From NCBI GenBank assembly GCA_016222825.1, contig JACRQF010000015.1, positions 297,646-361,645 on the forward strand: a stretch of 64,000 nt of DNA, in the 5' to 3' direction. Below the pieces are notes generated by a model. The model did no database searches. It had not been told where the DNA came from and was given only the letters and a program-made list of their open reading frames with translations. Below, one piece after another: positions 5,453-35,726 of this stretch; position 1 is the stretch's first letter, and every line of letters starts with the position of its first letter. Source of the stretch: Verrucomicrobiota bacterium. Its GTDB lineage: Bacteria; Verrucomicrobiota; Verrucomicrobiia; CAIQCK01. Both the position numbers and the translations under genes were made by a program.

Positions 5453-6724
5453 TCAGGCTTTCCGGATTGTGCGCGTCTTGGGGTCGTAGGTCGTGCGCCG
5501 GCCGAACTTGTAGGATTCCACCGCCATCAGACACGTGACGGAGTGCAGATAGCCCGCCTCGATCGGCGCGCGCGTCGGTTTGCCGGTGCGCATGCATTGC
5601 AGCCAGTCGAGGAAGTGGTCGGGCGTCTCGATCGGCTTCACGTCGTTGACGCCGCGGATGCCGCCGTCGCGCTTCGGCCCGCCCTCAGCGCTGTAGGTCG
5701 GCGCGCCCCAGTTGTCCATGATGAGCTGACCCTTCTCGCAGAAGTAACGGTGACGGTTGCCGCCGCCGTTGCCGAAGTTGCTTGAGTAGGCGACCATGAA
5801 GCCCTCCGGATAAACCCAGAGCGCCTCGACGTGGTCGGGGCAGGTGAACTTGTTCTCGTCCTTCCACGTGAAGACACCGCCGTTGCAGACGCAGCTCTTC
5901 GGGAACTGGACGCCGGTGATGTAGTTGTAGAGGTCAATGAAGTGGCAGCCGAGGTTCGCGACGGGGCCGTCGGTGTAGTCGAGGTAGCCATACCAGCCGG
6001 TATAGACCTCGGCGTCGAACGGCCGCTTCGGGGCGTTCATCAGGAACTCGCCCCAGTCCACGTCCTCTTTCCTTACCTGCGCGGACTTCGGGAGACTGGC
6101 TTTGACGTAGCCATACCAATACGGTTTCTCGCCGTTGCGGCATTGCTCGATGCGCGACACTTTGCCGAGAATGCCGGACTTCCACAACTCGCGGCAACCG
6201 GTGCTGGTGGGCAGGCTGCGGGTCTGCGTGCCGACTTGCACGACGATGCCCGCTGCTTTCACCGCGTCCACGGCGCGGCAAAGCTCTTCCATGCTCCGCG
6301 CCATCGGCTTTTCGACGTAGCAGTGTTTCCTGGCCTTGGCGGTGGCTTCGAGCTGGATCGCGTGATGATGGTCGGGCGAGGCGATCATGACGGCGTCAAT
6401 GTCCTCGCGCGCCAGCACGTCGCGGTAGCTGACAATCTGCTTCACGTCGGTGCCATACCACTTCTTGCACATCTCGGCGGCTTCCTCGCGCGCGAGCCGC
6501 CACGGGTCGGAGACGGCCACGAACTCGACGTTCTGCGCCTTGTCGTGCTTGTGAACGCCCTCCATGTGCGCTTTCCGGCCGCGACCGCCGCAACCGATCT
6601 GCGCGATGCGGATGCGGTCGTTCGCGCCCATGACGCGCGCGTAACTCTGCGCGGTCATGGAGGTGGCCGTCGTGGCGACGGCGGTGGTCTTGATGAAGTT
6701 TCTGCGGTTGACGTTCGTGTTCAT
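5453..6724 (-). CDS. Gfo/Idh/MocA-family oxidoreductase with TAT signal (paralog 1 of tandem pair)
   Basis: ORF 5453..6724; N-terminus MNTNVNRRNFIKTTAVATTA (TAT motif), GCGGRG dinucleotide-binding motif. Confidence 0.85.
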   Translation of the reverse strand: MNTNVNRRNFIKTTAVATTATSMTAQSYARVMGANDRIRIAQIGCGGRGRKAHMEGVHKHDKAQNVEFVAVSDPWRLAREEAAEMCKKWYGTDVKQIVSYRDVLAREDIDAVMIASPDHHHAIQLEATAKARKHCYVEKPMARSMEELCRAVDAVKAAGIVVQVGTQTRSLPTSTGCRELWKSGILGKVSRIEQCRNGEKPYWYGYVKASLPKSAQVRKEDVDWGEFLMNAPKRPFDAEVYTGWYGYLDYTDGPVANLGCHFIDLYNYITGVQFPKSCVCNGGVFTWKDENKFTCPDHVEALWVYPEGFMVAYSSNFGNGGGNRHRYFCEKGQLIMDNWGAPTYSAEGGPKRDGGIRGVNDVKPIETPDHFLDWLQCMRTGKPTRAPIEAGYLHSVTCLMAVESYKFGRRTTYDPKTRTIRKA

Positions 6725-32431: not shown

Positions 32432-32827
32432 ATGGCTGAACCGACATTCGACAAACTGAAGTTCGACTCCAACGGACTGATCCCGGCTGTCATCCAGGAG
32501 AGCGGCACGGGCCGCGTCTTGATGGTGGCCTACATGAACGCGGCGTCGCTGGCGAAAACGCTGGAAACCGGCAAGACGTGGTTCTGGAGCCGCTCGCGGC
32601 AAAAATACTGGCTCAAGGGCGAGTCCAGCGGCCATGTCCAGACCGTCAAGCGCGTGACGACGGATTGCGACTGCGACACGGTGCTCATCGAGGTCGAACA
32701 GGTCGGTGCGGCGTGCCACGAGGGTTTCAAGAGTTGCTTCTACCGCGAACTGCGCGCCGACGGCAACCTGAGTGAGCCGATCGAGCAGCGGTTGTTCGAC
32801 CCGGCGAAGGTGTATGGAAAGAAATGA
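32432..32827 (+). CDS. hisI: phosphoribosyl-AMP cyclohydrolase HisI
   Basis: 131-aa ORF with HisI motifs (…[26 protein letters not shown]…[20 protein letters not shown]…DCDCDTVL…). Confidence 0.9.
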
Positions 32828-32830
32828 GTC

Positions 32831-33391
32831 ATGAGCGAACTCTACGCACCGCCATTCGGACTGGCCTACTGGGCCGGCGTGGCGTTGCTGTTGTTCGCGC
32901 GCGGGCTGGATTTCCTCAGCACGTGGATCGCGACGCCGAGTTTGTTGCTGGAGGCGAACCCGATCGCGCGGCGGCTGGGCTGGCAAGGCGGAATTGCGGT
33001 GAACCTGCTCGTCTGCCTGGTGGCGGCGATGATTCCGTTTGTGGCTGTGCTGATCAGCGTGACGAGCGTGCTGGTGGCGGCGCGGAATTTCCAGGCGGCG
33101 TGGGTGTCGCGGACGATGGGCGAGTATGAGTTCCGCGAGCATCTGGAGGAGCAGTTTGGCCGCGCCGACAAGCGGCTGGTGCTCGGCTGTGTCTGGGCGC
33201 AAGGACTGCTCTACAGCGCGGTCGGCGTGGCGGTGGTGGCGCTGACGAACGACCTGATGGCGCAGGCGGTCGGCGGCGGCATCGTGGGTTTTGGCGTGGC
33301 GATAGCGGTCCATTCAATACATTATTACCGAAGAGCAAGACATGTATTATCCGACAAAGAGCGAGTTTCGCAGTTTAGCGAGCCGCGGTAA
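32831..33391 (+). CDS. hypothetical integral membrane protein (about 4 TM helices)
   Basis: ORF starts 4 nt after the hisI stop and overlaps trpE by 50 nt; strongly hydrophobic; no recognised family. Could be a frame artefact. Confidence 0.4.
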   Translation: MSELYAPPFGLAYWAGVALLLFARGLDFLSTWIATPSLLLEANPIARRLGWQGGIAVNLLVCLVAAMIPFVAVLISVTSVLVAARNFQAAWVSRTMGEYEFREHLEEQFGRADKRLVLGCVWAQGLLYSAVGVAVVALTNDLMAQAVGGGIVGFGVAIAVHSIHYYRRARHVLSDKERVSQFSEPR

Positions 33392-34826
33392 CCTCATTCC
33401 GGTTTACTGCGAGCTGCTGGCCGACCTGGAGACGCCGGTGTCGGCCTACCAGAAACTTCGCGGCAAAGGCCCGGCGTTCCTGTTCGAGTCCGTCGAGGGC
33501 GGCGAGCACATCGGCCGCTATTCGTTCATCGGCGCGGACCCCGGCATCACGCTCGTGCAGGACGGCGGCACCGTCCTCGTGCGCGAGGGCCGCAAGAGCA
33601 CGCGCGTCAAGTTCAAGCGCGACCCGTTGGAGGTCGTGGAGAAGGTGATGGCGCGCTACCGGCCGGTGGCGCTGCCGGAACTGCCAAGGTTCAGCGGCGG
33701 CGCGGTCGGATTCCTCGGCTATGAGTTCATCCACCACGTCGAGCCGGTCGTGCCGCGTCCGAAACAGGACGATCTTGGCGTGCCGCCGATGTATCTGATG
33801 CTGACGGACACCATCGTCATTTTCGATCGCGTCCGCCAGACCATCAAGGTCGTTTCCAACGCTCACGTCAGCGGCAACGCCGCCGCCGCCTACGACAAAG
33901 CCTGCCGCCGCATCGCCGCCATCATCGAACGGTTGCGGCGACCGCTGCCCGCCCGGCACGTCGAGTTCCAGCGCGAGGCGACGCCGCTGACGATGGAGAG
34001 CAACATGCCGGTCGAGCGTTACCAGACGATGGTGCGCAAGGCGAAGGAATACATCAAATCCGGCGACATCATCCAGGTCGTGCTCAGTCAGCGGTTCTCC
34101 GCGAAGGTGCGCTCCAAGCCGCTCGACGTTTACCGCGCGCTTCGCAGCGTCAATCCCTCCCCCTACATGTTCATCCTCGAACTCGGCGATTTCTCGCTCG
34201 TCGGCGCGTCGCCGGAGGTCCACGTGCGTTGCGAGGACGGCAACGTGGAGATTCGCCCCATCGCCGGCACGCGCAAACGCGGCAAGACGCCCGCCGAGGA
34301 CCTCGCGCTCGAAAAAGACCTGCTCGCTGACGAGAAGGAGCGTGCTGAGCACCTGATGCTCGTGGACCTCGCCCGCAACGATATTGGCCGCGTGTGCGAC
34401 TTCGGCAGCGTGAAGGTCGAGGAATTCATGGTCATCGAGCGTTACAGCCACGTGATGCACATCGTCAGCCAGGTCGAAGGCAAGCTCCAGAAGGAGCGCA
34501 CCGTCTATGACCTGATGCGCGCGACGTTCCCGGCAGGCACGGTCAGCGGCGCGCCGAAGATTCGCGCAATGCAGATCATCTCGCAACAGGAGGCGACGCA
34601 GCGCGGCCCCTACGCCGGCGCGGTCGGCTACTTCAGCTTCAACGGCAACCTCGACTGCTGCATCACTCTGCGCACCGCGTTGCTCAAGGGCGGCCGCGCA
34701 TACGTGCAGGCAGGCGGCGGCATCGTTGACGACAGCACGCCGGAAAACGAGTTTCAGGAAACGGTGAACAAGTCCATGGCATTGAGAAAGGCCATTGCGG
34801 TGGCGGAAGGTTTTGGAAAGACGTGA
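33342..34826 (+). CDS. trpE: anthranilate synthase component I TrpE
   Basis: 494-aa ORF; chorismate-binding enzyme signature and TrpE N-terminal region (MYYPTKSEFRSLASRGNLIPVYCELLADLETPVSAYQKL). Confidence 0.95.
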   Translation: MYYPTKSEFRSLASRGNLIPVYCELLADLETPVSAYQKLRGKGPAFLFESVEGGEHIGRYSFIGADPGITLVQDGGTVLVREGRKSTRVKFKRDPLEVVEKVMARYRPVALPELPRFSGGAVGFLGYEFIHHVEPVVPRPKQDDLGVPPMYLMLTDTIVIFDRVRQTIKVVSNAHVSGNAAAAYDKACRRIAAIIERLRRPLPARHVEFQREATPLTMESNMPVERYQTMVRKAKEYIKSGDIIQVVLSQRFSAKVRSKPLDVYRALRSVNPSPYMFILELGDFSLVGASPEVHVRCEDGNVEIRPIAGTRKRGKTPAEDLALEKDLLADEKERAEHLMLVDLARNDIGRVCDFGSVKVEEFMVIERYSHVMHIVSQVEGKLQKERTVYDLMRATFPAGTVSGAPKIRAMQIISQQEATQRGPYAGAVGYFSFNGNLDCCITLRTALLKGGRAYVQAGGGIVDDSTPENEFQETVNKSMALRKAIAVAEGFGKT

Positions 34827-34915
34827 TTCGTAACTCGTGATCCGTGATTCGAGCCGCGTCACCAATCACGAATCACGGATCACGAGTTACGAGTCACGCA
34901 TTACGGATTACGAAC
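34827..34915. repeat. array of 7-nt repeats (TYACGRR and its complement) forming a 24-bp perfect inverted repeat
   Basis: Read directly: arms at about 34828-34851 and 34868-34891, ~16-nt spacer; about seven consecutive 7-mers (aatcacg/aatcacg/gatcacg/agttacg/agtcacg/cattacg/gattacg) run to 1 nt before the trpG ATG. Confidence 0.75.
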
Positions 34916-35482
34916 ATGCTCCTAGTCATAGACAACTACGACAGCTTCACCTACAACCTCGTCCAATACCTGGGCGAGATGGGCGTGGAGATGAAGATCG
35001 TCCGCAACAACGAGGTCACTCTCGACGATGTGCGGGCGTTGAAACCGGCGCGAATCCTCATATCGCCCGGCCCGTGTTCGCCGGCACAGGCGGGCATTTC
35101 GGTGGAGGTCATCCGCCAGCTTGGACCGAAGATTCCGCTCTTCGGCGTCTGCCTTGGCCACCAGAGCATCGGCTACGCGTTCGGCGGCGAGGTCATCCGC
35201 AACTACCGGATGATGCACGGCAAGACCTCGCCGATCCACCACGACGGCCGGTTCCTCTTCCAAGGTCTGGCGAATCCTTTCGAGGCGACACGTTACCATT
35301 CGCTCGTCGTCAAGCGCGAGACGCTGCCGGATTGCCTGGAGATCACCGCCGAGACGCGCCCTGAAGGCGAGATCATGGGCCTGCGCCACAAACAATTCCC
35401 GATCTGGGGCGTGCAGTTCCACCCGGAGAGTGTGCTGACCACCGAAGGCAAGAAACTGCTGAAAAACTTCCTGACACTCTGA
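34916..35482 (+). CDS. trpG: anthranilate synthase component II (glutamine amidotransferase) TrpG
   Basis: ORF 34844..35482; canonical start at ATG 34916 ([19 protein letters not shown]…), class-I GATase catalytic Cys (GVCLGHQ) and His (QFHPES). Confidence 0.9.
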
Positions 35483-35575
35483 GGCCGCAGGCCGGGAACA
35501 TGGTGTCGGCGGGTTCCAGCGACGAGCGGGGGACGGTCTTGCAGTTTCGGTTGAGAAGCTGATTGTTCAACCGTT

Positions 35576-35601
35576 GTCCGAAGAATTTGTCCGAAGAATT
35601 T
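35576..35601. repeat. perfect 13-bp tandem duplication (GTCCGAAGAATTT x2)
   Basis: Read directly in the trpG to oxidoreductase intergenic region. Confidence 0.6.
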
Positions 35602-35726
35602 CCCTTTTCGTCGTGAATGACTGGCGGTAGTATCCGTCCGCCGTTTGCTTTTGAGAAGTCACCATGACATCGAGCAACCAATACTCCTTGCCGCAGTCGC
35701 GGACCGAAACCAACCCCTCACTCACC

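Follow-up and report, generated by a model that had tools for sequence, protein, structure and literature searches.

The trpE-trpG junction

The window analysed here is a whole stretch of 64 kb of DNA from a verrucomicrobium. It carries the genes for the two components of anthranilate synthase, separated by a spacer of unusual structure. The features of this region, all on the plus strand, are the following:

33342..34826, plus strand: trpE, anthranilate synthase component I, 494 aa (NCBIfam TIGR00564 trpE_most, E = 2e-177)
34820..34851, plus strand: left (5') heptamer array, 4.5 units, GACGTGA TTCGTAA CTCGTGA TCCGTGA TTCG
34822..34851, plus strand: 5' arm of a 30-bp stem (inverted-repeat search, 30 nt, 97% complementary; MFE and centroid folds; base-by-base check)
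34852..34868, plus strand: 17-nt loop, AGCCGCGTCACCAATCA (inverted-repeat search and RNA fold)
34859..34914, plus strand: right (3') heptamer array, eight TCACGRR-type units (TRF period 7, 8.0 copies)
34869..34898, plus strand: 3' arm of the 30-bp stem (inverted-repeat search, RNA fold, base-by-base check)
34899..34915, plus strand: 17-nt tail between the stem and the trpG ATG, CATTACGGATTACGAAC (RNA folds)
34916..35482, plus strand: trpG, glutamine amidotransferase component II, 188 aa (NCBIfam TIGR00566 trpG_papA)

The trpG product scores 257 bits against TIGR00566 trpG_papA, for which the cut-off is 121. A protein 100% identical to this TrpG is present in NCBI from a Verrucomicrobia MAG, and the nearest sequences to both TrpE and TrpG are those of uncultured Verrucomicrobia MAGs from groundwater and lakes.

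The spacer (34827-34915, 89 nt) is intergenic and filled by a heptamer array, with the layout (YYCGTGA)x4, a 17-nt loop and (TCACGRR)x8, the array ending 1 nt before the trpG ATG. A first-pass annotation of this DNA had described the spacer as made of 7-nt units, a description borne out by TRF (period 7, 8 copies) and by the unit-by-unit register. It had also counted about seven units in the right array up to 1 nt before the ATG; the 1-nt gap is correct, and the units are in fact eight, in the order TCACCAA, TCACGAA, TCACGGA, TCACGAG, TTACGAG, TCACGCA, TTACGGA and TTACGAA, followed by C and the ATG. The left array starts 7 nt before the end of trpE, and its first unit, GACGTGA, comprises the last trpE codon (ACG) and the TGA stop (34824-34826). 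In the orientation of the left array TGA or TAA occurs in all three frames; the right array has stop and start codons in none. The sequence TYACGRRTYACGRR, with at most one mismatch, has nine matches in the 64-kb window, all within the trpE-trpG spacer, against 0.77 expected and a maximum of five in 100 shuffles. The array is the only one of its kind in the window, and on that count the genome is not obviously rich in repeats.

The two arrays face each other as an inverted repeat. The first-pass annotation had reported two perfectly complementary 24-nt blocks, and these exist, with the second displaced by one base from the position it had given (34868-34891): positions 34828-34851 are the perfect reverse complement of 34869-34892. 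The repeat grows to 30 nt on each side (34822-34851 and 34869-34898), with a T/G mismatch, a U.G wobble in RNA, as its sole imperfection, and its 5' arm includes the trpE stop codon. The long stable hairpin predicted at first pass is confirmed by RNA folding: the spacer forms a 30-bp stem with an MFE of -57.5 kcal/mol, compared with -29.4 +/- 3.4 kcal/mol for shuffled sequences (z = -8.3), and 0 of 200 shuffles folded as well. The 17-nt tail that follows the stem is essentially unpaired in the folds and has no clear Shine-Dalgarno motif (compare GAGGAACC, the spacer of the array-free alleles described below).

Alleles of the junction in related loci

The same junction was compared in related loci, and the series was widened with contigs fetched via TrpG homologues (L145-L162). 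The array is missing from 14 of the fetched loci, a 6-nt spacer being found in L001-L004, L007, L023, L145, L146, L154-156, L158 and L162. This array-free junction reads TGA-GGAACC-ATG, and a GAGGA Shine-Dalgarno motif overlaps the trpE stop. In L001-L004, L007 and L023, whose TrpE is 84-94% identical to that of the window, trpE ends in AAAGTGA.

Other relatives carry arrays of differing make. L005 (90% identity) has a 67-nt spacer of TGATTGG and CCAATCA heptamers, and L006 (87%) an 87-nt spacer in which a different GC hairpin precedes heptamers. Among the contigs fetched via TrpG homologues, a 67-nt allele is found in L157, a 75-nt allele in L147-149 and a 110-nt allele in L159-161. An 89-nt allele, equal in length to that of the window, occurs in L150-153, from four samples; it differs from the window by five substitutions, two of which lie in the stem, both C to T and both leaving G.U pairs. 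Relatives whose proteins are 87-98% identical thus have spacers of 6, 67, 75, 87, 89 and 110 nt at one and the same gene junction, a natural allelic series in which both the number and the sequence of the units vary. The 89-nt allele nevertheless has the same length in four independent samples and so is not hypervariable on short time scales.

The array alleles have several traits in common. Their TrpE is 494 aa long, the extra codon being provided by the first repeat unit, against 493 aa in array-free alleles; they are in a common 7-nt register, which leaves 1-2 nt to the ATG (2 nt for the window when the units are taken as RTYACSR); and they carry linked synonymous codons at the 5' end of trpG (ATGCTYCTNGTCATA versus ATGTTGCTGGTGATA). 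The extra TrpE codon, the common register and the linked synonymous codons together indicate a single origin of the array alleles. One and the same TrpG protein can stand beside either kind of spacer: P0020 occurs with 67 nt and with 6 nt, and P0016 with 110 nt (L161) and 6 nt (L162), these last two loci also having the same downstream spacer. As the concatenated gene tree is nearly a star, the simplest history is that the array allele arose once and later diverged as units were gained and lost, and that recombination exchanged the two allele classes.

Of the five array alleles, four retain the hairpin, the folds being -57.5, -53.1, -57.7, -27.7 and -28.4 kcal/mol. Between the CGTGA/TCACG and TGGTGA/TCACCA alleles, the arms differ by complementary C to G and G to C changes over several units. 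Pairing of the arms is thus maintained among the alleles compared, through selection or through the mechanism that generates the arms. A persistent hairpin with concerted changes in its arms could reflect positive selection for a function rather than tolerance. The loops are conserved neither between alleles nor between unrelated loci.

An alternative start for TrpG was considered, an N-terminal extension from the GTG at 34844, and was rejected because the array-free alleles start at the same ATG.

Heptamer arrays are not limited to the trpE-trpG spacer in these loci. The spacer between trpG and gdh also bears heptamer hairpins in L005, L157 and L159-162; L006 has arrays in the corresponding spacer, and L009 and L011 have arrays elsewhere. 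The trpG-gdh hairpin (L005 12113-12216 and L159 2064-2170, also in L157 and L160-162) consists of inverted (GTGATTC)n ... (ATCACGA)n, starts 0-10 nt downstream of the trpG stop, with a normal Shine-Dalgarno motif (GGAGG or AAGGAG) after it; in L005 the hairpin has an RNA MFE of -42 kcal/mol (z = -4.7). In L009 (15330-15790), at least four different heptamer arrays (ATCTTCC, TGGGGTT, TGGTGCT and TCCTAAC) lie in one 460-nt intergenic region, and the final one, nearly free of G, stops 4 nt short of an ATG. The tandem repeats of the trp loci by themselves, a small set, show no excess of period 7; that excess appears only in the metagenome contigs described below.

The heptamer in metagenome contigs

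Metagenomes were scanned with the pattern TCACGRR-TYACGRR-TCACGRR. Arrays of this unit were found in at least 120 contigs, ranging from 36 to 71% in GC and with the arrays lying beside unrelated genes. The first-pass annotation had named such a spread over many unrelated intergenic sites, as of a generic REP element, as evidence that would tell against its reading, and across metagenomes this spread is what is seen. In a collection this large a few of the three-unit matches could be due to chance; among the matches listed, 106 of 124 arrays have at least four units, which makes them true arrays rather than chance 21-mers, 64 of 124 have at least five, and the longest has 19. The layout stop-(YYCGTGA)n-loop-(TCACGRR)n-start is common among these matches, examples being L043, L030, L099, L118, L142 (in the tuf-rpsJ spacer) and L040 (5' of rplO). 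The gene adjoining the array of L144 has cluster-mates at 90% identity or more in Burkholderiales MAGs; the unit therefore extends beyond Verrucomicrobia.

By crude gene calls, the arrays among the matches listed lie between genes that run in the same direction, apart or towards each other. These counts of flanking-gene orientation led to the rejection of a purely 5'-leader function, as the arrays occupy every intergenic context. Some arrays seem to sit within genes and in frame. Three arrays of TCACGAR units (L039 1678-1705; L122, minus strand, five units; L134 1305-1325) apparently lie within coding sequence, the hosts being a fumarate-hydratase-like gene, a carA-like gene and another gene, and would add peptide repeats of the SRITNHE type; the array of L122 is 35 nt long, not a multiple of 3.

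The contigs contain many tandem repeats besides the unit used as seed. Beyond 300 nt from the seed array, 80 arrays have a period of 7, compared with 12, 25 and 31 for periods 6, 8 and 9 respectively, and the period-7 arrays away from the seed comprise dozens of unrelated units. In L027 (minus strand, ~6430-6720), GGAGTAG, GGCAAAT, TCACGAA, TTACGAA and CTTACTT units stand back to back, an unbroken run of five units which suggests a process specific to the period and not to the sequence. A single contig, L029, has about 10 separate arrays of CTGATCG, AACTGAT and TATCAGA (see also L102, 3980-4013), and the heptamers of L029 and L102 resemble the TAACTGA repeats of Beggiatoaceae and Cyanobacteria.

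Orientation and composition of the arrays

Three regularities emerge from the matches listed: 1) the order of the arms is YYCGTGA then TCACGRR at 19 loci, while the opposite order, sought with the same detection pattern, is found at no more than three, all weak (two further candidates, L045 and L117, were noted by eye); 2) in the TCACGRR orientation at least 12 arrays end 1-12 nt before a credible ATG, mostly without a Shine-Dalgarno motif, against at most one dubious case in the opposite orientation; 3) period-7 arrays next to a credible start, whatever their unit, have more C than G on the mRNA strand in 23 cases versus 7, and in 13 versus 1 when the seeded unit is left out. The first of these properties is identical on either strand.

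Pfam confirms 10 of the 10 downstream genes tested (recR, ppk2, queG, fumarase, dnaX, sdhB, alaS, which encodes AlaRS, bolA, flgD and FAA hydrolase), with N-termini at the profile starts. Eight of the proteins were looked up, and for six of them the identical product is already recorded, which means that the start had been assigned independently at the same place. The metagenome gene calls themselves are crude (longest ORF or composition rules), which makes the orientation counts noisy; in GC-rich contigs longest-ORF calls take shadow ORFs, and L040 was called on both strands. Statistics on the distance to stop codons were discarded, as the TGA of a YYCGTGA array ends any ORF that enters it.

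The two orientations differ in codon content: YYCGTGA arrays have TGA in all three frames every 21 nt, plus GTG; TCACGRR arrays, as their sequence dictates, have neither stop nor start in any of the frames. Arm order, orientation at start codons and C-rich, G-poor leaders suggest that arrays are filtered by selection at the RNA level. On this analysis, the same regularities could alternatively stem from a positive role in Shine-Dalgarno-independent initiation.

Relationship to known heptanucleotide repeats

The element shows the features of a heptanucleotide simple sequence repeat (SSR): at least three head-to-tail 7-nt units, an intergenic position, and a number and sequence of units that are polymorphic between relatives. 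Among long SSRs, those with 7-nt units form the most abundant class in many genomes, as summarised in PMC4679880. Such repeats and the cyanobacterial STRRs (short tandemly repeated repetitive arrays), the subject of Mazel 1990 and Mrazek 2007 as summarised in PMC4692102 and PMC4679880, have no known function, and polymerase slippage with a 7-nt preference has been put forward for them. As portrayed there, STRRs are, like the element described here, tandem 7-nt units in intergenic regions, including those within operons, which vary between relatives, and one genome holds many different units. The present element differs from STRRs in its host (a verrucomicrobium, and Burkholderiales for at least one other locus), in its TCACGRR/YYCGTGA unit, in its low density in the window and in its arrangement as an inverted pair, with a 30-bp hairpin reaching from stop codon to start codon.

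In Xanthomonas, related species have heptamer arrays at the same gene junctions, but with differing lengths and sequences and sometimes as inverted pairs (PMC4692102). The Xanthomonas GGGAATC and Nostoc GGGGAYT repeats thus share with the element their occurrence at the same sites, extensive variation and occasional inverted pairs capable of forming stem-loops (PMC4692102), but their units are G-rich and form G-quadruplexes, whereas the units here have one to three G, no G-runs and form a Watson-Crick hairpin.

A further parallel is offered by the TAACTGA repeats of marine Beggiatoaceae, some Cyanobacteria and Bacteroidetes, which end a few nucleotides before start codons without a Shine-Dalgarno motif and have been proposed to act in Shine-Dalgarno-independent initiation (PMC4679880). 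As with the present element, they overlap the expected ribosome-binding site, few of the downstream genes have a Shine-Dalgarno motif, these genes have no functional theme, and the hosts belong to distant phyla (PMC4679880). TAACTGA repeats are nearly all direct, with one indirect case in BOGUAY (PMC4679880); here the unit is different and an inverted partner array abuts the upstream stop. No paper with a TCACGAA-type unit was found in the limited literature collection searched. The element belongs to the class of intergenic heptanucleotide SSRs (STRR-like), with a new unit and a new host phylum.

Origin of the array and its predicted effect on the trpEG mRNA

The explanation that we consider probable is that an inverted pair of heptanucleotide SSRs, 5'-(YYCGTGA)n-loop-(TCACGRR)n-3', was inserted or expanded in this lineage at an ancestral 6-nt junction; the pair would have no tie to tryptophan, and its orientation would be filtered at the RNA level. 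STRR-like arrays of this kind would originate and evolve as 7-nt units are gained and lost, and selection would act mainly as a filter on the orientations tolerated beside genes, with the stop-rich arm facing the upstream stop and the C-rich arm, free of starts and stops, facing the downstream start.

Under such an explanation the element would work only via the trpEG mRNA, and it is from the sequence that we infer an effect of the array on trpG expression. The 30-bp stem-loop would begin in the trpE stop codon and would have to be opened by the terminating ribosome. A hairpin this near a stop codon can hinder termination; REPs within about 15 nt of a stop codon were reportedly found by Liang, Rudd and Deutscher in 2015 to be able to interfere with it. 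About 17 nt of unpaired, G-poor repeat would then lead from the stem into the trpG AUG. Because the folded hairpin loops out most of the insert, the trpE stop and the trpG start would stay about 18 nt apart. Since the array interrupts the ancestral junction, trpG would be initiated without the ancestral Shine-Dalgarno motif, on an unstructured leader and probably without the ancestral coupling of stop and start. Duplexes of such length are possible substrates of RNase III or barriers to 3'-exonucleases, and the long duplex of the trpEG mRNA may plausibly act as either.

Alternative explanations

An explanation that goes further, and that we find doubtful, is that the element is a positively selected translational module, in which the hairpin adjoins the trpE stop to the trpG start and the C-rich, G-poor tail is a Shine-Dalgarno-independent standby or enhancer site. 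The tail might be bound by ribosomal protein S1 or by a cold-shock-domain protein, with a footprint of about 6-7 nt; the element would actively set the translation of trpG and its coupling to trpE, and the class as a whole would be a general translation-initiation device. Such a role would agree with the TCACGRR arrays abutting verified starts, mostly without a Shine-Dalgarno motif, where the opposite orientation does not, with the bias of C over G beside starts and the fixed order of the arms among the matches listed, and with the retention of the hairpin across alleles through complementary changes in its arms; the same idea was put forward for the TAACTGA repeats (PMC4679880). It agrees less well with the alleles of sister strains, which work without the array and with a plain 6-nt spacer, or with the presence of arrays in convergent and divergent regions and apparently in coding sequence. 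Shine-Dalgarno motifs are apparently little used in this genome in any case (8 of 33 crude gene calls), and the orientation bias could just reflect the removal of arrays containing GUG or UGA from the vicinity of starts. Also against it, we know of no binding protein for heptamer arrays.

In its broadest form, which we hold to be unlikely, this idea would make the element one instance of a widespread undescribed intercistronic module in several phyla: a stop-embedding hairpin, (YYCGUGA)n/(UCACGRR)n, with a C-rich, G-poor leader of 7-nt periodicity that replaces the Shine-Dalgarno motif and recruits ribosomes directly or via a protein with a 7-nt footprint (S1 or cold-shock-domain). If this were true, the fixed arm order and the orientation at start codons would be functional signatures and not mutational leftovers.

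Insertion by a transposase (RAYT or another) of a mobile element of the REP/BIME or MITE kind, instead of growth by slippage, is very unlikely. The element does form a hairpin, fills intergenic space, occurs at many unrelated loci in at least two phyla and is clearly either present or absent at the trpE-trpG junction. Like enterobacterial REPs and BIMEs, it is a transcribed intergenic, intra-operon palindrome, and REPs can stabilise the upstream mRNA. A REP, however, is built on a conserved sequence and not on tandem 7-nt units, occurs in hundreds of copies per genome and goes with RAYT transposases, while the present element consists of heptamers, has one copy in 64 kb and shares with copies elsewhere the 7-nt unit only, with no conserved element. 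As for MITEs, loops and lengths differ in every copy and a conserved core is absent, loops and cores being different at every locus. No target-site duplication is visible when filled and empty junctions are compared (AAAG/ACGTGA...TTACGAAC/ATG versus AAAGTGAGGAACCATG). Neighbouring arrays use many unrelated 7-nt units, which a period-specific mutational process fits better than a sequence-specific transposase, and exchange of alleles with linked synonymous differences accounts for the array being present in some strains and absent in others. Of the suggestion made at first pass that the element is REP-like, what stands is that the repeat is intergenic, generic in kind, able to form a hairpin and tied to no particular gene; its identity is not that of a REP or BIME, as it is a heptanucleotide SSR array.

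Control specific to tryptophan synthesis, by a TRAP-like protein, by an sRNA or by an attenuator or terminator between trpE and trpG, had been considered in the first-pass annotation and is now extremely improbable. It is suggested by repeats that reach the trpG start and by a strong hairpin inside a trp operon, and the site bound by TRAP at trpG (pabA) of B. subtilis is likewise a repeated short motif overlapping the translation-initiation region. TRAP, however, needs 9-11 (G/U)AG triplets spaced by 2-3 nt and a conserved mtrB; the period here is 7, and the 104 nt of 34827-34930 contain only four such triplets, at spacings of 33, 7 and 32 nt, so that the pattern is absent. A T-tract after the stem, as an attenuator or terminator would have it, is lacking (the post-stem sequence is CAUUACGGAUUACGAAC), and a promoter/terminator scan found no consensus site in the spacer. 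The Rfam 15 covariance models gave no match in the window at gathering score; at permissive E-values only miRNA-precursor models appeared, below threshold, as generic matches to a long hairpin. A target specific to trp mRNA would not be expected to be missing from the majority of sampled close relatives, strains with identical TrpG among them, to differ in unit sequence between alleles, or to recur 5' of recR, dnaX, alaS, sdhB, flgD and other genes. Comparison of the spacer in relatives, many of which have 6 nt instead, thus gives a trp-specific role no support, and this explanation is largely refuted. There is no sign of trp-specific control. The interpretation offered at first pass is, as a whole, partly supported.

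Equally improbable is a role at the DNA level (sites for a DNA-binding protein, or a cruciform) or in Rho loading on the C-rich tail, causing polarity on trpG when untranslated: the C over G bias near starts does resemble the composition of rut sites and the inverted arrangement is symmetrical on both strands, but the units are too diverse for a single DNA-binding protein and typical rut regions are far longer than the unpaired tail of about 17 nt.

Tested as a TRAP site, an intrinsic terminator, a REP/BIME and a MITE, the element does not qualify as any of them. A CsrA (GGA) site, brought to mind by ACGGAU motifs, was also tried and rejected, as the L005 and L147 alleles have no GGA on the sense strand.

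Significance of the locus

With the lineage-specific expansion of a heptanucleotide SSR pair as the probable explanation, the locus itself is ordinary in function, and for trpG of a verrucomicrobium a tempting false lead, that of TRAP-like or attenuator control, is removed. Why the period is 7 and what heptanucleotide arrays do are old questions, for which the trpE-trpG locus offers a usable handle in its allelic series, with TrpG sometimes identical between spacers. The arm order, the contact with start codons in the TCACGRR orientation only, the C-rich and G-poor leaders and the concerted change of the arms are further concrete handles.

Genes and repeats around trpE and trpG

Between hisI and trpE lies a 101-aa ORF (32824-33129) with no NCBIfam match; a second ORF (32831-33391) overlaps its 3' end and extends into trpE. 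On the other side, the 181-nt gap (35483-35663) between trpG and a Gfo/Idh/MocA-like oxidoreductase gene starting at 35664 contains a perfect 13-nt direct repeat (TTGTCCGAAGAAT x2.2, 35574-35601, TRF score 56).

The gene 3' of trpG changes in almost every relative compared (L005, L145, L146, L147, L150, L154 and L159). In place of the oxidoreductase of the window, relatives have glutamate dehydrogenase, PolX/PHP, a B12-binding protein, PMT_2 or a HEAT-repeat protein, and, on the opposite strand, DegT. This variation puts a synteny break directly after trpG, upstream of which hisF-hisI-trpE-trpG are kept together.
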